IMG/VR virus record: IMGVR_UViG_3300045988_161023
DNA length: 48,341 bases
Direction: 5' to 3' (one strand)
Origin: a virus
The notes beneath the pieces were generated by a model. It did not search any database and was not told the DNA's origin. It saw nothing but the letters and a program-made list of their open reading frames with translations. Made by a program: the position numbers and the translations under genes. Positions 512 through 17,006 of this stretch are shown piece by piece (the first letter of the stretch is position 1; each line of letters begins with the position of its first letter).

Positions 512-528
512 CACCGTGAACAAGATTC
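512..528 (-). promoter_or_regulatory. Late-promoter dyad motif copy 1 (CACCGTGAACAAGATTC), upstream of the lysis operon
   Basis: One of four near-identical copies of CACCGTGAACAAGGTTCG (others at 31650, 32526 and 44113). Each copy lies roughly 40-65 nt upstream of a minus-strand start codon. Confidence 0.5.
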
Positions 529-920
529 TACAACAGCCGATATTGCTGCTGTGGTTCCGGGTTCCCGCAAAGCTGCTTTTTGAGCCGACGGACGTACCTG
601 GTGGTCACGCCAAGGGCTTCGGCGATGGCGTCCGGCTTCTCCCCTGCTTCCAGACGGGACAGGATACGTCCTTTGAACGGTTCACCACGGCGCAGGTTGG
701 GCACGACGATCTGCATCCCCCCAAATTCTGTACAGAGGGCCGCCATACGCTGCCGACCAAGCAACTCCAGAAGAAAACCTGTGGGCTTCCGGGGGATAAA
801 GTATGAACGTCCACCGCACTGTGCGCAGAGGATGACCGCCCCCACGTCACCGATGGCCTCTGACAGTTCGAACTGGCTCACCCACACGTCACTCATGAGC
901 ACCAACCTTGTGTTCCCCAA
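528..920 (-). CDS. mor: Mor/C-family late transcription activator (Mu Mor-like)
   Basis: CAQCGGRSYFIPRKP matches the Mu Mor CKHLGGGQVYIPRG motif. A C-terminal HTH (AIAEALGVTTRYVRRLKKQL) matches the Mor TRYGVTFNTVYKAIRRM region. Length is 130 aa against 129 aa for Mor. Confidence 0.8.
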   Translation of the reverse strand: MGNTRLVLMSDVWVSQFELSEAIGDVGAVILCAQCGGRSYFIPRKPTGFLLELLGRQRMAALCTEFGGMQIVVPNLRRGEPFKGRILSRLEAGEKPDAIAEALGVTTRYVRRLKKQLCGNPEPQQQYRLL

Positions 921-2219: not shown

Positions 2220-2645
2220 TCACTGCTCCACCCCCAACGCCCGGAGATTGGCAAGCTGTTCGTTCAAGGGCATATCCGGCCTTCCCTGCTTCCGGGCGTC
2301 CATCTTCCCCCGCAGGTTGGCGAGAATCTTCGCGCACCAGTCGGCGCCCTCTTCGCAACGCTCGTCGAACGTCAACGCGGTTTCCGGCAAGGCCTCACGG
2401 CTCACGGTTGGTATCTGCTTTCGTGCCTCTTCCACCTGCCGCATAATGTCTGCCGGGACTGGGAAAAAGCTTGATTTAGCCTCAACACGGCGCATAGCGC
2501 CCCGAAACTCATTATCACCCACGTTAGCCAATACTTCATTCCAAGTCTTGACCAACAGCTCGAACTCTTCCCGTTCCGGCATCGGTTGCCGATAAAGCAC
2601 AAACGCCTTGCTCAGTTCCAAAGCCAACAGTTGCAAGCTCGCCAT
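2220..2645 (-). CDS. Hypothetical protein, possibly replication-associated (downstream of the initiator)
   Basis: 141-aa ORF immediately after the replication initiator, overlapping its 3' end. The true start may be the internal Met at 2582. Confidence 0.45.
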   Translation of the reverse strand: MASLQLLALELSKAFVLYRQPMPEREEFELLVKTWNEVLANVGDNEFRGAMRRVEAKSSFFPVPADIMRQVEEARKQIPTVSREALPETALTFDERCEEGADWCAKILANLRGKMDARKQGRPDMPLNEQLANLRALGVEQ

Positions 2646-3582
2646 TTTTCATCACCTCATCGAATTTCAAAATTTGTTTTGCCCATTCGCCGCGTTTTGC
2701 GGTTTCCGCCTGTCTCGCCGTCATAGGGGCTTGTGTTCGCCCGCTAGGAGCGGCTTGCTTTTTGGCTTTGCGCTCCTCAACGGCATCGAAAACCCACTTG
2801 CGGAGAGCCAGATAGTGCGACTTGTACGGGTCTTTCCCTGCTCTGGCCCCGAGATGGATGTCCAAGAAGGCGATGGCATCGGCGGTCTTATCTTCCCCGT
2901 AGGCTGCTATGAGCTTTCCGTGTTCTTCTGCCGTGAGCTTGACGTTGGCATATTCCCCGAACGTGAGCTTTTGTGGCTTCGGCTTCTGTGAGCGAGTGCG
3001 TGTGTGCGTCTGCACACTCTCTTCTAGGTTCTCTGATCGGTTCTTGATCGGTTCTTGGTAGATTCGGGTACCAGTTTTGGTAGGGGTGGGGTACCTAAAC
3101 TGGTAGGGGTGGGGTACCGAAACTGGTAGGGGTGGGGTACCTAAATCGGTACCGGTACCAGTTTTGGTAGGGGTACCTAAATCGGTAGGGGTGTCTAAAA
3201 AATTATCGTTAAAATCTTGATGGTTATCTATACCCCTACCAAAACTGGTAGGGGTAGCATTTTCAGAAAAAGGCTTTTTTGAGGCTGTTTTCCTATAATC
3301 TGTGAGAATTGTTTGATTTTCTCTTCCTTCAACGCCAACCAAAGTGTACTCATAGCCGCGCCCACGCACTTCTCTACGTGAGACGATTCCGGCTTGCGCG
3401 AGGTCGATAAGACACGTTCTGATGGTCTTCACATCAAGCCCGGTATCAAATGCCAGCCGTTGAAGAGAAGGCCAGCACACATGATTCTCCCCTGCTCTGT
3501 CGGCAAGAGACAGGAGCACCAGCTTTTGAGTGGGTCGAATCCCTTGGAGGCTCCAAGCCCAACGAGTTGCATCAATGCTCAT
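2536..3582 (-). CDS. Replication initiator protein (lambda O-like) with an N-terminal HTH_36-type winged helix
   Basis: N-terminus IDATRWAWSLQGIRPTQKLVLLSLADRAGENHVCWPSLQRLAFDTGLDVKTIRTCLIDLAQAGIV is typical of phage and plasmid replication initiators. The gene contains the iteron array in its central part. Confidence 0.7.
   Translation of the reverse strand: MSIDATRWAWSLQGIRPTQKLVLLSLADRAGENHVCWPSLQRLAFDTGLDVKTIRTCLIDLAQAGIVSRREVRGRGYEYTLVGVEGRENQTILTDYRKTASKKPFSENATPTSFGRGIDNHQDFNDNFLDTPTDLGTPTKTGTGTDLGTPPLPVSVPHPYQFRYPTPTKTGTRIYQEPIKNRSENLEESVQTHTRTRSQKPKPQKLTFGEYANVKLTAEEHGKLIAAYGEDKTADAIAFLDIHLGARAGKDPYKSHYLALRKWVFDAVEERKAKKQAAPSGRTQAPMTARQAETAKRGEWAKQILKFDEVMKNGELATVGFGTEQGVCALSATDAGTGRVRAVGQDLE
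3035..3265. repeat. Origin-like iteron array plus AT-rich tract inside the initiator gene
   Basis: GATCGGTTCTTG occurs twice. There are about 5 direct copies of a ~23-bp unit GGTACC(T/G)AAA(C/T)(T/C)GGTAGGGGTGG. An AT-rich stretch taaaaaattatcgttaaaatcttgatggttatctata follows, then an inverted copy CCCCTACCAAAACTGGTAGGGG. Confidence 0.7.
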
Positions 3583-5059: not shown

Positions 5060-5305
5060 CGATCATTTTCCTTGGTGTATCCCCATGCTCTAATGGGGGC
5101 ATGGAAACCGTTCACCTACTCATCACCCGGCGCGGCCCCGTGTGGCGCGTCCGCATCCTGTCCGGCGGCACCATCCGCTGGAAGTGCTACCGCGTCGCGG
5201 AGTACCCGACGCCGGAGGCCGTGGTCCGGCGGTGCATGACGGGGCTAGCGTTCCGGAGCAAAAATCAGGAGCACGACAACAGCCACGCCGAGCGCAAGCA
5301 GGATG

Positions 5306-5551
5306 TCACACAGCATGACTCACCTCTTCGGGTTCGGTGGGAGTGCTGGGAGCGGCTGGAGGCCATAGGTCGGGCCTGAGAGATGAGAGGGGGATACCCA
5401 AAAAACGATTATAACGAATGGCAGCTTCAGGGCTTATAACGCGATGTTTCTTGAAATGCCTCCACACCGTCACATAAGGAAGCCCTGAGCGTGCGGCCGC
5501 GTCAGTGATTGTGAAGCCGTAAAAACTAGGGTGGGAAAGTTCGTTCTTCAT
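5306..5551 (-). CDS. Cro-like HTH regulator
   Basis: 81-aa HTH protein (FTITDAAARSGLPYVTVWRHFKKHRVISPEAAIRYNRFLGIP) transcribed divergently from the CI-like repressor. Confidence 0.6.
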   Translation of the reverse strand: MKNELSHPSFYGFTITDAAARSGLPYVTVWRHFKKHRVISPEAAIRYNRFLGIPLSSLRPDLWPPAAPSTPTEPEEVSHAV

Positions 5552-5641
5552 GAGAACTAAATACCAGTAGGTAAAATTATAGTCAACATAATTTACCTAT
5601 TGGTGGTAGCAATTCTTTTTTCCAGCTGGTAAAAAATTTTT
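5552..5641. promoter_or_regulatory. OR-like operator and divergent promoter region between cro-like and cI-like genes
   Basis: 90-bp AT-rich spacer with three related dyad sites, TACCAGTAGGTAA, TTTACCTATTGGTGGTA and TCCAGCTGGTAA. The outer two are inverted repeats of one another. Confidence 0.5.
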
Positions 5642-6376
5642 ATGGATATTTACGCTGAATTTTTGGCCTTACTGGATAAGGCCATCGAAAAATGTGGAAA
5701 CGCCAAAAAACTAGCTGAGGCTCTTGACGTTCACCCGAATCTTATCACTCGCTGGAAAAAAGGTGAGCGTGTACCTACTATTACATCAATACAACCTCTT
5801 TTAGATTTTCTTGGTGTAGGGTTTTCCGATCCAACCGTTACCCAAAGTAAAGAGGTCTGCTTTGTTGACGCGCGTATAGCCCCGGCTGGGGACACGCTCC
5901 CCCCTCCCCCGGATGAAGACTACCTCGCCGTTCCCCTTGTGGAAGAAGTTGGCGCGGGGCCCGGCATCATTCCGCAAAATGAACTCATCTCGTGGTTCCT
6001 CGTCTGGCGTCACCAGCGGGCCATTCAACACAAGCGCGATCTGATCGCCGTCATGCTCGGAAAGCATTCAACTTCGATGGTTCCCACGCTCAAGCCGCAG
6101 GATATTGTGCTGGTGGATAGGCAGGATAAGGATGTGATGAACTTTAAGGGAAGAATCATGCTTGTCCTCGATCCCGCCGACGGCAGCGGAAAGATCAAGC
6201 GCGTGGCAGCGGAAAACCAGCCGAAAAAGCGCGACTATCGCATCACCTACTATTCGGACAACGCCGCCGAGAATCCCCCCGAGGTCTACAGCTTAATGGA
6301 AGACTTCGAGGGGGACTGGAACAAGTCCATCGTCGGTCGGGTTGTATGGGCGTGGAGTGACGTGAGCTGCAAATGA
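5642..6376 (+). CDS. CI-like repressor (XRE HTH plus S24 LexA-like autopeptidase domain)
   Basis: N-terminal HTH LAEALDVHPNLITRWKKGERVPT. C-terminal S24 motifs HSTSMVPTLKPQDIVLVD (Ser nucleophile) and GSGKIKRV (Lys). Confidence 0.85.
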   Translation: MDIYAEFLALLDKAIEKCGNAKKLAEALDVHPNLITRWKKGERVPTITSIQPLLDFLGVGFSDPTVTQSKEVCFVDARIAPAGDTLPPPPDEDYLAVPLVEEVGAGPGIIPQNELISWFLVWRHQRAIQHKRDLIAVMLGKHSTSMVPTLKPQDIVLVDRQDKDVMNFKGRIMLVLDPADGSGKIKRVAAENQPKKRDYRITYYSDNAAENPPEVYSLMEDFEGDWNKSIVGRVVWAWSDVSCK

Positions 6377-6410: not shown

Positions 6411-7292
6411 ATGGGTCCAGTTGATAAAGTTGCATATGAAGCTTTGAATAATTATTGTATTAAACTAGAAGAACATCTCCAGTCTGATGTTTTTTTGTTT
6501 TATGGTGGTATTCACCCTAACCACAGAACATTCTTTACCACTGAATTTGAAAAATTAGCTAGAAAGAAAAAACATAAATCTCTTGCTGTCAATTTAACAA
6601 CAAATGGCGGCAGTGTAGAAATGGCTGAGATAATGGTTGAGGTGATGCGTAGGTTCTATGATGAAGTATATTTCATTGTACATGAATATGCATACTCAGC
6701 GGGTACTATTCTTTGCATGTCTGGCGACAAAATATATATGAATTTTGCCTCATCATTAGGCCCTATAGATCCTCAAGTATTGTCTAATGGACAATGGGTT
6801 CCTGCACAAGGGTATTTAGATCAATTTGATGCAATATGTAAAAAATCATTAAATAAAGATTCTAATAACCCCATAAGTCCAGTAGAGTTACAAATGGCTT
6901 TAAATTTAAATCTTGCTGATTTAAATTTTTATCAACAAGCACGAAATATAACCGTAACGCTATTAAAAAAATGGCTCGTAAATTATAAATTTAAAGACTG
7001 GACAATTCATAGTAAAACAAATACCGAAGTCACACTTAAAGAAAAAGAGCATAGAGCTGAAGAAATAGCTAGAATATTAGGTGATAATGCTCACTGGCAT
7101 ATACATGGAAGACATATAGGAATAAAAACTCTTCAAGACGATCTAAAGCTAAAGATTGAAGATTATTCAGACGACCTTAAATTATATAGATTAGTAAAAG
7201 AATATAATAGACTTGCGATTGACTTTTCATCAAAATATAACTATCAATTATTTTTACATACTAGAGAAATGACTAATGGGAGTTTACTCTAA
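6411..7292 (+). CDS. S49/SDH-family Clp-fold serine protease (moron in the rexA position)
   Basis: TNGGSVEMAEIM...VHEYAYSAGTILCMSGDKIYM...GPIDPQV matches the SppA/ClpP-fold GG(S/T)V...SAG...DKI pattern. GC is strikingly low, about 30-35% by eye against roughly 60% in the flanks. Confidence 0.7.
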   Translation: MGPVDKVAYEALNNYCIKLEEHLQSDVFLFYGGIHPNHRTFFTTEFEKLARKKKHKSLAVNLTTNGGSVEMAEIMVEVMRRFYDEVYFIVHEYAYSAGTILCMSGDKIYMNFASSLGPIDPQVLSNGQWVPAQGYLDQFDAICKKSLNKDSNNPISPVELQMALNLNLADLNFYQQARNITVTLLKKWLVNYKFKDWTIHSKTNTEVTLKEKEHRAEEIARILGDNAHWHIHGRHIGIKTLQDDLKLKIEDYSDDLKLYRLVKEYNRLAIDFSSKYNYQLFLHTREMTNGSLL

Positions 7293-7492
7293 TGAAAATC
7301 GACAAAAAGCATTATAAAATGTCATTATTACTTAAAAATATAGAAAACAATCCAGCATTGAAACATCATCATGAAATGATGTTAATTTTAAAAAATATGG
7401 GCATCAAGACAAACCCTATTCAACAAGTTGATTTTACAAATAAAAATATCACCGAACTATCTAATATGAATATTAATCCATTAGTACCTTAA
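7292..7492 (+). CDS. Small hypothetical protein, translationally coupled to the protease (TAATG overlap)
   Basis: 66-aa ORF with the same low GC. No family recognised. Confidence 0.5.
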   Translation: MKIDKKHYKMSLLLKNIENNPALKHHHEMMLILKNMGIKTNPIQQVDFTNKNITELSNMNINPLVP

Positions 7493-7506
7493 CGGAGCCT
7501 CCCTTT

Positions 7507-7533
7507 GCCCCTCCTCGTGAGGGGCTTTTTTGT
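7507..7533 (+). terminator. Rho-independent terminator after the cI / protease / small-ORF operon
   Basis: GCCCCTCctcgtGAGGGGC followed by TTTTTTGT. Confidence 0.65.
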
Positions 7534-7589
7534 GCCCTATGGGACGTGACCGCCGATGCCTTCATGGTGTCGGCGGTATTTTTATATCT

Positions 7590-7645
7590 CATATTTTACC
7601 TATTGGGAATTTTATTCTTGACCTATTTTTTACCAGTTGGTATTG
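7590..7645. promoter_or_regulatory. OL-like operator / leftward-operon promoter region
   Basis: TTTTACCTATTGGG repeats an OR site (12 of 12 nt). TTTACCAGTTGGTAT is a TACCA-NN-TGGTA palindrome. The region precedes the long plus-strand early operon. Confidence 0.4.
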
Positions 7646-8088
7646 TAGCTTCACGACGAACGGAAAAGGCGAGTGGCGCGGCAACGGCCCGCTGAAAGCT
7701 GGAACCGGACGGAGGAAGCCCCAACAAGTACGAGCTCGGCAAGCGCAAGCCTTTGGGAGGGGAAGCACGCGACGGCAGGAAAAGGGGTGAGGTGAAGACA
7801 ATCAGAGCGAAGAAGCCCCCCATTGAGGCGTTGTACCCGGAACTCCCGGCAAGGCGTCCAAACAAGGGCTGAGCATACACGGTTACGACACAAAGATCGG
7901 GCCGTGAAACGTGATGAAATACGAATTTCTACATCCGGGCGGTCAGTTGACTTTCTGACAATTCACCGCCCCGCATGAGAGGCGCAGCGACAATGCGCGT
8001 TGCGCCGAACCATGCGTTGAGATGTGCCGCATGGGAGCGCGCCCCGGCGGGGATTGGCCCCGTCGGGTGCTTGCCTTGAATCATCGAA

Positions 8089-8113
8089 GCCCGGACACGC
8101 GCCGGGCTTTTTC
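8089..8113 (+). terminator. Intrinsic terminator or attenuator in the early-operon leader
   Basis: GCCCGGacacgcgCCGGGC followed by TTTTT, about 50 nt upstream of the first early gene. Confidence 0.45.
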
Positions 8114-8161
8114 ATTGGTTCTGGGACTCCGGAACGAATTTCAAAACAGAGGAGAATAGCC

Positions 8162-8386
8162 ATGATGCAGTTCATCGTAATTTCGCATTCGGAAAGCGGC
8201 CCATTGGTTGAGGAGTTCGAGACGAAGGCAAAGGCGGTAGACTTCGCGGAGGCTGTAGCCAGTGATGGTATGCCATCGACCATACTCATGAGAATTTCCG
8301 AGATTCCCGCAGTTTTGCCAGAACGCGAAGACTTCGGCGTTCTCCCCGGCATCGACTTCCCCGCAACACTCCACCACGCTTGGTAA
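8162..8386 (+). CDS. Hypothetical protein
   Basis: ATG at 8162 preceded by GAGGAG. Trimmed from track ORF 8024..8386. Confidence 0.5.
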   Translation: MMQFIVISHSESGPLVEEFETKAKAVDFAEAVASDGMPSTILMRISEIPAVLPEREDFGVLPGIDFPATLHHAW

Positions 8387-8473
8387 AGCGCCTAGCCCCG
8401 CACTTGCCCCGGATTTCCGGGGCAGGAAAAGGGATTGGGACGCCGATCCAGACTTCAACACAGGAGAAAAGGT

Positions 8474-8650
8474 ATGACTATGACAATATCTCACGCAGAC
8501 GACTTTACCCGTAGCCATCCCGTGCTCACCGGGAAGCGCAAAGGTACAACGCTCCGGGAACGTCTTGAACGCATTCGTGCCAAGGCAAGAAAGGCCAGTG
8601 TGCGCGAGGCAGCAGAACAATGGCTGAGAAAGACGGAAGTGGCGGCATGA
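8474..8650 (+). CDS. Hypothetical small basic protein
   Basis: ATG preceded by AGGAGA. Trimmed from 8435..8650. Confidence 0.45.
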   Translation: MTMTISHADDFTRSHPVLTGKRKGTTLRERLERIRAKARKASVREAAEQWLRKTEVAA

Positions 8651-8802
8651 TCAAGGAAGTATACGTAAACCCTCCAGGCAAGAAGCGGTTCCCAATGCCA
8701 CCTCAGCGCGAGCGTTTGGCACCCCCTCCGTGGGCGTTGGGCGTGGTCCTCGTGGTTGTGGCTATCTTCATAGGCTCATGCGAATGGGTGAGGGGGATGT
8801 GA
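8647..8802 (+). CDS. Small membrane protein
   Basis: ATGA overlap with the upstream gene. Hydrophobic helix WALGVVLVVVAIFIGS. Confidence 0.4.
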   Translation: MIKEVYVNPPGKKRFPMPPQRERLAPPPWALGVVLVVVAIFIGSCEWVRGM

Positions 8803-9662
8803 TGAACAGGCAAGAATGGCTAGAGGCTAGACGCTCAGGAATAGGTGGAAGTGATATGCCGTCTATTCTTGGAATATGCCCCTTTGGGGGGACACCGTAT
8901 GGTGTATGGCAAGCCAAGGTATGCGGATGCGGTCCAGATAAGGATACCCCGGATATTCAGCGCGGCAGGTTTCTGGAACCTATTATTCGTTCCATGTATG
9001 CGGAACACACAGGCTACGAAGTGCAAACGCCGGGGATGCAACGGCACCCGATAGAGACATGGGCTATCGCATCTCTGGATGGACTCGTCATTCCTCCTAA
9101 GGAGGAAAATGGACTCGCTGTACCGCCGGGCATTCTCGAAATCAAAGCCCCAAGATACAGCAAGTTCGTATCTCTTGAGGAAGACGGAATAACGCAAAAT
9201 TATCAAGTACAGATGCAGCATTACATGGCTGTTACTGGCCTTCAATGGGCTGACTTTTGCGCTTGGAATGCTGACGCATTTAGACTGCTCATCATACGAA
9301 TACAACGTGATGACGATTTGATCAGTTTGATGTGGGATATAGCGCGGGATTTCTGGCAAAGATATGTCCTGACGGGTATCGCACCAGAGCAAGCTACAGA
9401 ATCAAAGATAAGCATTCCGCCTCTTGAGCCTACGCTAGTACGCATTGACACACCTGAATGGAACGAGGCGGCTCGTGAATGGCGAGAGGCGAGAGGTATT
9501 TTAAAAGATGCTGAAGCATACGAGGTCCAGTGCAAAGAAAAACTGATTGCGCTGGCCCTTTCTACTGGCAAGAGCAAGGTAAAAGGGGCTGACGTGTCCC
9601 TATCAGTCGATAAAAACGGAATCCCGAGAGTACGGGATACTGCAAAGGAGCAAGCTGCATGA
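8802..9662 (+). CDS. YqaJ-like / lambda Exo-like recombination exonuclease (PD-(D/E)XK)
   Basis: EWLEARRSGIGGSDMPSILG...TPYGVWQAK...LEIK match the YqaJ viral recombinase motifs. Start at the MNRQEW ATG at 8802. Confidence 0.8.
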   Translation: MNRQEWLEARRSGIGGSDMPSILGICPFGGTPYGVWQAKVCGCGPDKDTPDIQRGRFLEPIIRSMYAEHTGYEVQTPGMQRHPIETWAIASLDGLVIPPKEENGLAVPPGILEIKAPRYSKFVSLEEDGITQNYQVQMQHYMAVTGLQWADFCAWNADAFRLLIIRIQRDDDLISLMWDIARDFWQRYVLTGIAPEQATESKISIPPLEPTLVRIDTPEWNEAAREWREARGILKDAEAYEVQCKEKLIALALSTGKSKVKGADVSLSVDKNGIPRVRDTAKEQAA

Positions 9663-10588
9663 GCCAAGATATGATGTTAAGCGCGGAAATAGTTCCCACG
9701 CAACCCGCATCCGTACCTGTTGCCGTCGACCCGGCTGCAATCGCGGCGGCTGAGGAAGCAAAAGCCATTGTTCAAGCTGCGTATATCATGGCAACGCACA
9801 GGCCAAGAAATTTCATGCAGAGTCGGCAACGCATTCTTGACGCGTGCAAGCGGGCGGCATTCGCAGAAAGGGTTGAATATGCCAAGCCTGTAGGTGGGGG
9901 GAAGATATACGGCCCTTCAATCCGTTTCGCCGAACTTGCGATTCAGCAATGGGGGAATATCCGCGTAGATACCTCTACCCTATTTGAGGGAGACGAATTC
10001 AGAAAAATCAGGGTTCAGGTACTCGACCTCGAAACCAACACCAGCTTTTCCAAGGTGATCACTGTAAACAAAACCGTAGAACGAAAAGATTCATCCGGGA
10101 GAGAGGTTTTACGGTCACGCAAGAACACATACGGCAAAGACGTATTCATCGTAAGAGCCACGGAAGAGGAACTTGCCACGAAAGAGGCGGCAGCCATTTC
10201 CAAAGTTGTCCGAAATGAGGGTTTGCGGCTTATCCCCCAAGATATCATCGACGAAGCCCTTGAGACTGCAAGGGAAGCAAGACGCGGAGCAGTTCGCGAT
10301 CCGCATGAAAGAATCAGAAAAATATGTGACTGCTTCGCATATTATCGTATCACTCCTGAAGACTTAGGAGACTATCTAGGCGTAAGTATTGAAAAGGCAA
10401 GCACAGCACAACTTGAAGATCTGGAGTTGGTTTACAATGCAATCCGAAGTGGTGAAGCGAAATGGGCTGATTACGCCAAAAAAGACGACTCCGAAGACAC
10501 GCATAAAAATACGACAAAAGCCGCCCAAGATCTGAAAGACAGGCTTCAAAGCGCAAAGGCAGCGGCATCGTTAAGTAACCCTGAATAA
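9659..10588 (+). CDS. RecT-family single-strand annealing protein (partner of the YqaJ exonuclease)
   Basis: ATGA overlap with the exonuclease gene. AIVQAAYIMAT and LFEGDEFRKI resemble E. coli RecT SAIVQCSQLG and VREGDEFSFE. The yqaJ-yqaK gene order is conserved. Confidence 0.6.
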   Translation: MSQDMMLSAEIVPTQPASVPVAVDPAAIAAAEEAKAIVQAAYIMATHRPRNFMQSRQRILDACKRAAFAERVEYAKPVGGGKIYGPSIRFAELAIQQWGNIRVDTSTLFEGDEFRKIRVQVLDLETNTSFSKVITVNKTVERKDSSGREVLRSRKNTYGKDVFIVRATEEELATKEAAAISKVVRNEGLRLIPQDIIDEALETAREARRGAVRDPHERIRKICDCFAYYRITPEDLGDYLGVSIEKASTAQLEDLELVYNAIRSGEAKWADYAKKDDSEDTHKNTTKAAQDLKDRLQSAKAAASLSNPE

Positions 10589-10635
10589 CCACCCCGGCCC
10601 GGCTCACCACCGGGCCTTTCTTTTGAGGTGATGCC

Positions 10636-11167: not shown

Positions 11168-11231
11168 CACCCCACGCCCCGCCCTCCCCCGGCGGGGCTT
11201 TTCATACCCCACCATCATACTGGAGAACATC

Positions 11232-11408: not shown

Positions 11409-11488
11409 CAAAATGGGAAAGGCGGCTCACGTGGGTGTGGGTCGCCTTCTTCGTGTGGGTGGTCTGGATGGTGTGCGTGGAGTAACCA

Positions 11489-12695: not shown

Positions 12696-12932
12696 ATGGG
12701 ATTCATTTTCTGCATTATTGCGAATTTATCGGCATTGGCCACAATAGCGTGGCTAGGTTTTCTCCTTACCCGTCGCGCTAGTCTGTGGCTTATCGTTGTT
12801 ATGCTCCTTCTCAGTGTCCATTTTGTTATTCCTGCAAGCGATATTTTTACCTGCCCGAAATGTGGACACATCGAAAAGGTTAAAGTCTTTAAAACGTATA
12901 CGACGACTGTAAGTCAGGGAGATGATGGGTGA
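12696..12932 (+). CDS. Small membrane protein
   Basis: Two predicted TM helices (FIFCIIANLSALATIAWLGFLL and LWLIVVMLLLSVHFVI) plus a CPKCGH motif. Confidence 0.45.
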   Translation: MGFIFCIIANLSALATIAWLGFLLTRRASLWLIVVMLLLSVHFVIPASDIFTCPKCGHIEKVKVFKTYTTTVSQGDDG

Positions 12933-15581: not shown

Positions 15582-15773
15582 ATGAGTGAGGCAGAAAAAC
15601 TGCAAAAAATTGCCCAGATTATGTTGGAAAAAGAGAAGAAAGAAAAAGAAGTTGCAGCACTTAACCGCATGATTGCCGAACTTCTAGGAATATCCTCTAC
15701 AGAAACAATGAAATTACCGAACAAGGTCTATTCATCAAATCAGTTTAAAGCTGCATGTAGGGGGGCAAAGTGA
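15582..15773 (+). CDS. Small protein upstream of and overlapping int; possible excisionase/DNA-binding protein
   Basis: 63-aa ORF with GGGGGAGAT RBS and a GTGA overlap with the int start. The Xis assignment rests on position only. Confidence 0.35.
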   Translation: MSEAEKLQKIAQIMLEKEKKEKEVAALNRMIAELLGISSTETMKLPNKVYSSNQFKAACRGAK

Positions 15774-16768
15774 GTTGGTCACAGAGATCTGACGGTCGAT
15801 TCATTGTAAAATACAAAGACAAAGGAATATGGAAACAGATTTCTTTCACAGACAAAGAGAAGGCTATACTCTTTGACGCAATGCATAACGCCCCAAAAGA
15901 AGAGATTCGTCTCACTATGGGAGAATTGATCGTCAAGTATCTACATGGAAATCCGGATCTTTTTCATGAAACCCGCGAGCGCATTATCTGGTTGTATGCC
16001 GATGGTGGTCCATGCGCCTTCATGCGCGACAAATATGCAGATTCTCTAAATCGCCAAGACCTCGAACAACTTCGGGAAAACATACGGGAACGCAAAGCCA
16101 GCAACAACACGTCAAACCACTATCAAGCATATACAAGGGCAATATTGGCGTGGGGAGTCGATCAAGGTCTACTTGTGCTTAACCCTTGGCGAGATTTCAA
16201 AAAACTTAAAATATCAAAACCAATTCATACCGCAACGTTACTAGATCTGAAACGCTTATATCCTTTTCTTCCCCCTTATCTGCAATGGGCCGCAAAGACG
16301 GCCTTTTTTTTGGCACTTCGCCCGGGGATGGTTGAGCTTTTCAGCTTGAAATGGGATGCCTTCGATTTTAGGCGGGGAATCGTTTCAATCCGTCAAGGTA
16401 AAACAGGAAAGATCAAGAGTGTCTATCCGAACCCTGTGTACATGCAAGAAGCCGCCGCACGCTGTGCCGAAGATTTCAAGCGAGGGGTAGCGCTGGTTTG
16501 CCACAACAATGGGAAACCCGTTCTGTCCTACCATAAAATGTGGGGAAAGGCGTGCCGACAAGCAGGGGTCAATTTAAGGTTCTACGATGTGCGACACCTT
16601 GCCGCTACAGAAATGCTTGCCCGTGGCGCAGACCTTGCCGCAGTCGCCGCCCAACTCGGCCACGCATCGGTAACGACAACCGGAAGCACATATGCGCACG
16701 TCACCCCGGGGGGGCAGTCACATGCCGGATCACTCATGCCTGCAATCGACATCGAACCGAACTCATAA
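15770..16768 (+). CDS. int: Tyrosine recombinase / phage integrase
   Basis: C-terminal catalytic region RFYDVRHLAATEM...LGHASVTTTGSTYAHV carries the R..H..R..Y signature. GTG start after GGGGGG. Confidence 0.9.
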   Translation: MSWSQRSDGRFIVKYKDKGIWKQISFTDKEKAILFDAMHNAPKEEIRLTMGELIVKYLHGNPDLFHETRERIIWLYADGGPCAFMRDKYADSLNRQDLEQLRENIRERKASNNTSNHYQAYTRAILAWGVDQGLLVLNPWRDFKKLKISKPIHTATLLDLKRLYPFLPPYLQWAAKTAFFLALRPGMVELFSLKWDAFDFRRGIVSIRQGKTGKIKSVYPNPVYMQEAAARCAEDFKRGVALVCHNNGKPVLSYHKMWGKACRQAGVNLRFYDVRHLAATEMLARGADLAAVAAQLGHASVTTTGSTYAHVTPGGQSHAGSLMPAIDIEPNS

Positions 16769-16965: not shown

Positions 16966-17006
16966 AAAAATCCCCCTCCCGGCACAAACCGGGAGGGGGA
17001 TTTTTT
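16966..17006. terminator. Bidirectional rho-independent terminator
   Basis: AAAAATCCCCCTCCCGGcacaaaCCGGGAGGGGGATTTTTT is a perfect 17-bp stem flanked by A and T runs. Confidence 0.7.

Follow-up and report, generated by a model that had tools for sequence, protein, structure and literature searches.

The 48,341-nucleotide stretch analysed here (IMG/VR virus record IMGVR_UViG_3300045988_161023, hereafter the window) is a lambda-like prophage of Bilophila wadsworthia, with Bilophila wadsworthia as its host. At the start of one of its early operons, between the promoter and the first gene (positions 7646-8161), lies a leader whose first part is a conserved RNA element, the subject of this report. 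A scan of 185,579 species genomes showed that a 20-mer from this leader matches B. wadsworthia ATCC 49260, where the copy is locus L036 on NZ_JNJP01000012, and one Proteobacteria metagenome-assembled genome (MAG), and a blastn search with positions 7480-8400 gave no DNA-level match among GenBank phages. As in the nutL-N-tL1 region of lambda, the plus strand carries in order the CI repressor gene, an accessory gene (moron), terminators, the operator and promoter (OL/PL), the leader, a terminator and the recombination genes (exo/recT), running on to int. The region 7646-8161 therefore fills the exact slot of lambda nutL-N-tL1 and of HK022 putL, an analogy that an earlier interpretation made from the letters alone (the sequence-only reading) had drawn and that the gene order bears out.

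The promoter in front of the leader was identified as the OL/PL equivalent because the operator-like repeats that flank it recur in the cro/CI intergenic region, where the motif TTTTACC(N3)TTGG, i.e. TTACC(N4)TGG, was found three times (approximately 5556-5637). The palindromes at the operator position differ in related phages. The segment 7653-8113 is thus the untranslated leader of a CI-repressed, PL-type early operon. The results showed that no credible open reading frame (ORF) is present in 7646-8161, as the sequence-only reading had stated: internal plus-strand ORFs do not exceed 51 aa, the longest on the minus strand is 85 aa (if a 129-aa ORF lying largely across the downstream gene is set aside), and indels of 1, 2 and 4 nucleotides (nt) together with swaps of whole modules among relatives break every frame. 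Its further statement that every frame is open was incorrect, as 24 stop codons occur across the six frames in 516 bases and no open stretch exceeds 103 codons. With 55-61% GC the region resembles the rest of the phage, so that its description as GC-rich applies only by contrast with the 27%-GC moron upstream; its plus strand is rich in purines and poor in T (G 167, C 138, A 132, T 79). The first real gene begins at ATG 8162, as read before, and stands behind GAGGAG, and the 74-aa protein that it encodes shows 95-99% protein identity among relatives.

Related copies of the leader were collected from IMG/VR and from metagenomes. The 74-aa protein as query retrieved 7 loci, two leader motifs as queries retrieved 20 and 18 further true loci, and a gapped core motif gave at least 42 true copies among at least 120 metagenome rows, amounting to at least 82 core copies with at least 59 distinct core sequences. 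Comparison of these copies showed that the conserved element is not the whole leader of about 500 bp to which the sequence-only reading had referred, but only its first ~150 nt (7653-7803), with a length of 140-175 nt among variants. The covariance model built for it (R1) found exactly one core per locus, at 78-157 bits, in at least 82 loci. A second copy, resembling nutR or putR, was not found in the 48-kb window, where the next-best covariance-model matches scored at most 16 bits. Among the matches listed, all true metagenome copies lie on human-gut contigs, all copies belong to one narrow phage group (Bilophila plus the one MAG), and no element other than the core is shared by the starts of all these PL-type operons.

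Alignments showed that the promoters and operators differ between phages, reflecting different immunity types, and that near-invariance starts at the predicted transcription start (+1). A -35/-10 pair whose -10 element ends 6 nt before the conserved A was present in all 59 of the 59 distinct copies (among the matches listed), and the majority-base frequency was 0.94 at +1 to +22 compared with 0.59 at -70 to -8 (at least 59 distinct copies). In order, the core consists of the 5′ block ACGACGAACGGGGAAGGCGA, a variable hairpin, AAAG(C/U).., the block GGAGGAAGC, a variable multi-helix module and GGUGA(G/U)GUGAAGACA, and near-invariant blocks of 20 nt and 9 nt are kept across otherwise divergent variants. 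The most conserved internal motif is the purine linker GGAGGAAG, which resembles a Shine-Dalgarno sequence and is unpaired in all folds; no start codon stands at a usable distance from it in the window type. The extended linker block GGAGGAAGC is identical in 32 of 38 distinct cores from viral contigs and the window, and the variants retain AGGA.

Investigation of Rfam 15 with the whole window gave no match at gathering thresholds, and searches in E-value mode with 7400-8300 and with three relatives gave only tRNAs and chance-level matches; riboswitches, EAR/epsC, JUMPstart, C4, 6S, tmRNA, RNase P and large non-coding RNAs (ncRNAs) were among the Rfam families that were not matched. Literature searches found no prior description of this leader element. 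The element is unannotated, narrow in distribution (Bilophila prophages of the human gut) and richly sampled.

The minimum-free-energy (MFE) folds of every variant type showed the same two-domain topology, namely Domain 1, the unpaired linker and Domain 2 closed by helix P5 (Table 1). Helix P4 of Domain 1 occurs as three unrelated stems, GGCGCGG/CCCGCY (with a bulge), CCGGC/GCCGG and CCGGaCUGG/CCAGCCGG, all of which form hairpins, and within type a, the type of the window core, one of its pairs occurs as G-C, G.U and A-U. Positions 7/8 in P2 occur as CC-GG, AA-UU and CG-UG, with purine-purine mismatches also frequent. The two strands of P5 change together (CCCCA/UGGGG, CCUC/GAGG, CCAGCC/GGCUGG and CACCAGCC/GGCUGGUG, and in a further version CCGGUU, CCAGUU or CUGGUU with GACUGG). 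Between cognate strands 5.0 of 6 pairs form, compared with 3.4 of 6 between non-cognate ones. In an unfitted MAFFT alignment of 59 sequences, 81.5% of the cells were paired, compared with 19-43% with slid partners, and the covariation score was 0.147 compared with 0.103 ± 0.006 for shuffles, none of 500 shuffles reaching 0.147. The alignment made by the model gave the same pairing and covariation result. Realignment of the swapped modules with the covariance model gave essentially the MAFFT alignment again, so that the counts understate pairing in types b and c. Cells with G.U were numerous and cells with C.A were few, indicating that the structure is on the plus strand.

The strength of the fold differed between variant types. 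In types b and c Domain 2 is multi-branched and its interior folds strongly, with alifold energies of -55.7 and -58.7 kcal/mol, respectively, and only these two types are clearly stable (MFE z-scores of -2.6 and -3.9). In the window type the interior of Domain 2 was poorly defined. The whole leader (7650-8120) gave z = -2.06 on the plus strand and -0.23 on the minus strand, most of this stability coming from a downstream module (module D) and the 3′ hairpins. A helix pairing the conserved UUCAC that immediately precedes the core with GUGAA/CGUGA further on was considered and rejected, as transcription is predicted to start after UUC and many copies are without module D. Comparison across relatives thus yielded compensatory helix changes with modest formal covariation and no Rfam match. 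Taken together, these data support, at the level of sequence comparison, a two-domain architecture for this conserved leader RNA. For the window variant, the unpaired purine blocks that are conserved may be as important as the helices.

Table 1. Features of the window and of the early-operon leader
Feature	Position	Strand	Remarks
Late transcriptional activator	528-920	-	
Minus-strand genes: CII-like, O-like replication initiator, RusA	O-like initiator 2536-3582	-	
cro-like helix-turn-helix (HTH) gene	5306-5551	-	Diverges from CI
CI-type HTH/S24 repressor	5642-6376	+	
AT-rich two-gene insert (moron)	6411-7492		Between CI and OL/PL; 27% GC (range 23-39%)
Two tandem intrinsic terminators	7507-7530 and 7549-7585		Close the CI/moron operon
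Operator-like repeats (OL equivalent)	TTTTACCTATTGG 7594-7606; TTTTACCAGTTGG 7628-7640		Flank/overlap the promoter; read from sequence
Sigma70-type early promoter (PL equivalent)	7618-7646	+	TTGACC-17-TG-n-TATTGT; promoter scan
Predicted transcription start (+1)	A7653	+	
Conserved leader core RNA	7653-7803	+	Covariance model R1, 130 bits; 5′ block ACGACGAACGG..AAGGCGA, Domain 1, GGAGGAAG linker, Domain 2, tail GGUGAGGUGAAGACA
Domain 1, irregular hairpin	7657-7711	+	P2, P3, terminal P4
P2	7657-7658 + 7661-7663 with 7705-7707 + 7710-7711		
P3	7668-7670 with 7698-7700		
P4 hairpin	7674-7694		
Purine linker GGAGGAAG	7711-7718	+	
Domain 2	7719-7787	+	Closed by P5: CCCC 7719-7722 with GGGG 7784-7787
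Variable module V3	7804-7877	+	One of several alternative sequences here
Accessory conserved module D	7878-7971	+	Hairpins CACGGUU..GGCCGUG (7878-7906) and GGGCGGU..ACCGCCC (7937-7971)
Hairpin cluster and insertion hot spot	7972-8082	+	Palindromic hairpin 7972-8016, CAUGCG/CGCAUG stem, hairpin 8039-8070
Intrinsic terminator	8088-8113	+	AGCCCGG, loop ACACGCG, CCGGGCU, UUUUC; -15.6 kcal/mol
Ribosome-binding site	8149-8154	+	GAGGAG
First early gene	ATG 8162, to 8386	+	74 aa; no family match
Three small ORFs after the leader		+	74, 58 and 60 aa
YqaJ/RecE-like exonuclease	8802-9662	+	
RecT-like protein	9659-10588	+	
HU, DNA methyltransferase, Lar-like protein		+	After the RecT-like gene
Integrase	15770-16768	+	Followed by a strong terminator, 16968-17003
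Sense terminators in the PL-type operon	8088-8113, 10596-10616, 11176-11198, 11421-11446, 12735-12756, 16287-16304, 16968-17003		10596-10616 after recT; 11176-11198 after HU
tRNA loci after the core in relatives	L044 8509-8597; L048 1052-1139; L049 618-705; L167 883-970; L026 4971-5059		

What follows the core was highly variable. Directly after it, relatives carry unrelated sequence, tRNA genes or a protein gene. Arrays of tRNA genes (Ser-UGA, Gln-UUG, Met, Leu, Phe and one atypical) begin 6-20 nt past the core in at least 10 loci, and two loci (L040 and L045) have an ordinary protein gene with its own ribosome-binding site ~20 nt past the core. Insertions of 0.75-1 kb follow the positions equivalent to 7982 in L004, 8068 in L007 and 8019 in L002; the cargo is a 221-aa protein with no family match in L004 (2955-3620), a SocA/Panacea-domain protein with a small membrane protein, toxin-antitoxin-like and with its own terminator, in L007 (3063-3876), and a DUF2335 membrane protein in L002 (747-1585). 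A protein-coding gene in this place in related phages, which the sequence-only reading had named as evidence against its proposal, was therefore formally found for the 3′ half of the interval, but never for the core. That the core may be followed by a tRNA array, a protein gene or non-coding RNA suggests a cis function at the level of transcription, independent of translation and of any particular downstream gene.

Module D was found in ~20 viral-contig loci with the motif CGGGCCGTGAAACGTG, and many core-bearing loci are without it. One of its helices shows a compensatory change from U-A to C-G (AGUUG/CAAUU compared with AGCUG/CAGUU in L057). Neither the small ORFs of module D (MKYEFLHPGGQLTF) nor those of Domain 2 in type c were accepted as coding, as the frame differs between variants. 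The segment 7972-8016 is a 45-nt near-palindromic hairpin (CGCAUGA GAGGCGCAGCG ACAA UGCGCGUUGCGCC..CAUGCG), which is inverted in L003 (445-490) and L018 with its hairpin potential kept. One tRNA-like gene of 88 nt is recurrent; ARAGORN reported it as 'tRNA-???' with a two-base anticodon (aa), and as a tRNA it scored only 38.9 bits in Rfam. Its anticodon loop may be unusual, or the gene may encode a tRNA that serves as a suppressor or a decoy.

The terminator hairpin that the sequence-only reading had described at the end of the leader was confirmed. It consists of GCCCGG (8089-8094), the loop ACACGCG, CCGGGC (8102-8107) and TTTTT (8108-8112), with a folding energy of -15.6 kcal/mol. The automated scan had missed it, since its T run is taken up by A-T and G-T pairing at the foot of the stem. 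Of 67 distinct loci, 35 keep the terminator, always with the same stem but with at least six different loops, and the distance of the terminator from +1 is 380-500 nt without cargo and 1.1-4.1 kb with cargo. In the MFE fold of 7796-8120, the 3′ arm of the terminator together with its U-tract (8099-8113, GCGCC GGGCUUUUUC) is paired to GAAGAAGCCC and GGCGU (7809-7831). This pairing could be a local anti-terminator or a chance repeat of the 5′ arm of the terminator; the segment 7809-7831 belongs to module V3 and is missing from most variants.

The operon behind the leader is unusually rich in such hairpins. A single detector run on the whole window found 7-8 sense terminator hairpins in the 9.4-kb PL-type operon, whereas the same detector found none in the PR-like operon (5551 to 1, minus strand) or in the 14-kb minus-strand late operon. 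Within 4 kb past the core in 55 related loci, 119 sense compared with 16 antisense terminator hairpins were found, with at least one in 50 of the 55 loci; these loci are partly redundant, so that the ratio counts more than the absolute numbers. Given that a terminator-punctuated operon runs to int, processive antitermination should be needed to transcribe it, as in lambda. Neither an N-like gene, in agreement with the sequence-only reading, nor any other antiterminator gene was found between the promoter and the first terminator. The core stands in front of untranslated tRNAs and no protein is encoded before the first terminator, pointing to a function in cis at the level of transcription.

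A cis-acting antitermination RNA had been suggested at this place before, and both the conserved RNA element and the terminator-rich operon fit the suggestion; that this RNA itself confers the read-through is what we infer from the two. We therefore propose tentatively, with a confidence that falls somewhat short of even, that the core is a cis-acting processive antitermination leader similar to put and canT. The core RNA would fold while emerging from RNA polymerase and would, by itself or together with a host factor, act in cis on the transcribing polymerase and so render it termination-resistant. The modified polymerase would then pass the terminator at 8088-8113 and the sense terminators at ~10.6, 11.2, 11.4, 12.7 and 16.3 kb, and this read-through would allow expression of exo/recT, HU, the methyltransferase, Lar and int. 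The lytic genes would not be intended for polymerases that leak past the two terminators of the CI/moron operon. The space between core and terminator serves different phages as a slot for cargo genes or tRNA arrays. A broader version of this proposal is held with noticeably more reserve: the core might represent an undescribed class of polymerase-modifying RNA, put/canT-like in function and unrelated in sequence, that is universal in the lambdoid prophages of B. wadsworthia, a pathobiont of the human gut, and that both licenses read-through and provides a protected slot for cargo (tRNA arrays and toxin-antitoxin or defence-like genes).

Several observations weigh against this proposal. The window core (type a) gave z = +1.45, no better than shuffled sequence, with an alifold energy of -16.4 kcal/mol. 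Pairs changed on both sides numbered 7, compared with a shuffle mean of 7.3, and RNAalifold on the global alignment gave only -5.6 kcal/mol, partly because the swapped modules cannot be aligned by sequence. The covariation comes largely from whole modules that are inherited together and represents few independent events, and the structure was derived from the same sequences that were used to test it. The terminator predictions are pattern matches only. There is one core copy, and none in the PR-like operon, compared with put in both early operons of HK022, a contrast that is tempered by the lack of predicted terminators in the PR-like operon here. Finally, were read-through constitutive, the element would be transcribed just as well by polymerases coming in from upstream.

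Among known systems, the predicted function would be closest to that of HK022 putL or Tn916 canT. HK022 putL, ~70-74 nt long and made up of two stem-loops with bulges, starts at +3, directly behind PL; it suppresses termination in cis without any protein factor and binds the zinc-binding domain of the beta′ subunit (PMC9378689). Stem I of put contains a triplex. Like putL, the core lies directly downstream of the repressor-controlled PL of a lambdoid phage and starts near +1, its two helical domains are joined by a short linker, the operon contains several terminators, and no antiterminator gene lies between the promoter and the first of them. Unlike put, it is 140-175 nt long, has a multi-branched Domain 2 in types b and c, is present once per genome rather than as putL and putR in the two early operons, and belongs to Bilophila (Desulfovibrionaceae) rather than to Escherichia coli; no sequence resemblance was seen, as judged without scoring against a put sequence or model. 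Given its size, its copy number and this lack of resemblance, the element is not a member of the put family. Tn916 canT is a cis-acting processive RNA antiterminator whose activity needs 341-452 nt, and EAR of Bacillus subtilis and conAn2 of pLS20 are further cis-acting antiterminator RNAs (PMC11658703). The core shares with these three a long multi-helix RNA in a leader or within an operon, a long operon of a mobile element in which several terminators are passed, and terminators that insulate against read-in transcription (PMC11658703). Unlike the core, they come from Firmicutes, are unrelated to it in sequence (no match to EAR, Rfam epsC) and were defined genetically, whereas the element here is known from comparative sequence analysis alone.

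Resemblance to lambda itself ends with the gene order, as no N-like ORF precedes the first terminator and no boxA or boxB was seen in the core by eye. An arginine-rich ORF of 58 aa (RERLERIRAKARKASVREAAEQW, 8474-8650) follows the terminator and is not universal. It contains an arginine/lysine-rich stretch, GKRKGTTLRERLERIRAKARKASVREAAEQW, which we take to recall the arginine-rich RNA-binding motif of N-type antiterminators. P4 CI RNA and P1 c4 are regulatory RNAs that are processed from phage early-operon leaders and give immunity via termination or a translation block. The core, too, is an RNA in the 5′ leader of an early operon, and where tRNAs follow, RNase P could release it; unlike those systems, the phage has a classical CI/cro switch, and no Rfam C4 match was obtained.

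Four other explanations of the core were weighed. The core might be a nut-type loading site for a phage protein antiterminator, N-like or other, together with host Nus factors or a NusG paralogue. The arguments from position and from the terminators apply equally to such a site, the 58-aa arginine-rich ORF lies just downstream, and a protein could bind at the conserved blocks that are single-stranded, namely the 5′ 20 nt, GGAGGAAG and GGUGA. However, no ORF lies between the promoter and the first terminator (7653-8088), the 58-aa protein is encoded past that terminator and has no Pfam or PHROG match, and neither a boxA-like pyrimidine-rich motif nor a boxB-like hairpin with a GNRA-type pentaloop was seen in the core by eye, so that we consider a nut-type site improbable. 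The 58-aa ORF was rejected as an obligatory partner, as it is present in only about half of the loci; it is missing from many core-bearing loci despite 8-12 kb of downstream sequence, among them L055, L109, L084, L110, L041, L028 and L054. A leader that has nothing to do with termination is a more serious candidate, albeit an unlikely one. It could be a stand-alone early ncRNA, either 461 nt long from promoter to terminator or cut free by RNase P where tRNAs follow, which would act in trans by sequestering an RNA-binding protein, the 16S 3′ end or a defence system as a sponge or decoy. Alternatively, it could be a 5′ stabiliser or processing element for the sequence downstream. A promoter, a structured RNA and a strong terminator make up the layout of a small RNA gene, the unpaired 5′ end is 4 nt long with the first paired base at nt 5, like known 5′ stabilisers, and where tRNA arrays begin 6-20 nt past the core, their processing would set the core free as a separate RNA. 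Both the GGAGGAAG of the linker and the GGUGAU of the tail resemble the complement of the 16S 3′ end. A plain stabiliser, on the other hand, needs no 150 conserved nucleotides, and the 3′ end of a trans-acting RNA would differ from phage to phage with the cargo, the tRNAs or the gene that follows, which fits better with a cis element anchored at the 5′ end; nor would either role explain why only this operon has many sense terminators.

A conventional attenuator or riboswitch, sensing a ligand or signal and controlling only the terminator at 8088-8113, would account for a long structured leader that ends in a terminator just before the first gene, and the MFE pairing of 7809-7831 with the 3′ half of that terminator (8099-8113) points in the same direction. 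Yet 0.7-3.7 kb of cargo or tRNA genes separates the core from the terminator in 13 of the 35 distinct loci that keep it, a gene or tRNA directly follows the core in others, the pairing segment belongs to the variable V3 and is missing from most variants, and no Rfam riboswitch was matched, leaving this the least probable of the explanations. Hardly more probable is that the conserved sequence has no RNA function and consists of DNA-level recombination linkers, a decayed gene or passenger sequence linked to the promoter. In favour of this, the region is strongly mosaic, with conserved blocks on either side of swapped modules, the thermodynamics of the window variant are unremarkable, and among the matches listed every copy belongs to a single narrow phage group (Bilophila and one MAG). 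Against this, conservation begins at the predicted +1 in all 59 of the copies listed, beside unrelated promoters; the swapped modules retain complementarity at their ends, with G.U but few C.A pairs, and are thus strand-specific; the near-invariant 20-nt and 9-nt blocks persist across divergent variants; and no frame is preserved, so that the sequence is not a decayed gene.

Two further segments of the window deserve mention. The AT-rich insert 6411-7492 encodes a 293-aa serine protease of the SDH/ClpP fold (PF01972, phrog_11747) and a 66-aa ORF and occupies the position of lambda rexAB; it is probably a moron expressed in the lysogen or a defence gene. Other phages have a different gene at this slot, e.g. 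a 178-aa membrane protein in L004. On the minus strand, the gap between the cro-like and CII-like genes (5060-5305, 245 nt, GC-rich) is at the position of lambda nutR/tR1 and contains nothing more than a hydrophobic ORF of 23 codons and a weak hairpin of terminator type (5289-5270); compared by eye, it does not resemble the core of the PL leader. A search of the window with ARAGORN gave neither a tRNA nor a tmRNA.

The element belongs among the cis-regulatory leader RNAs of mobile-element early operons, and a role in antitermination is plausible. Even if that role is wrong, it is an unannotated conserved RNA and a candidate for RNA family databases, and its motif marks the early promoter and the insertion slot for cargo and tRNA genes in Bilophila prophages. 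To our knowledge, processive antiterminators that consist of RNA alone are very few (put, EAR, canT and conAn2). If the proposal is true, the core would be another, from a deltaproteobacterial gut phage group and with at least 59 natural variants. The variants would show which helices can be swapped and which single-stranded blocks are fixed, offering a handle on how a nascent RNA reprograms polymerase, and the element would explain delayed-early gene expression in lambdoid phages that have no N gene.

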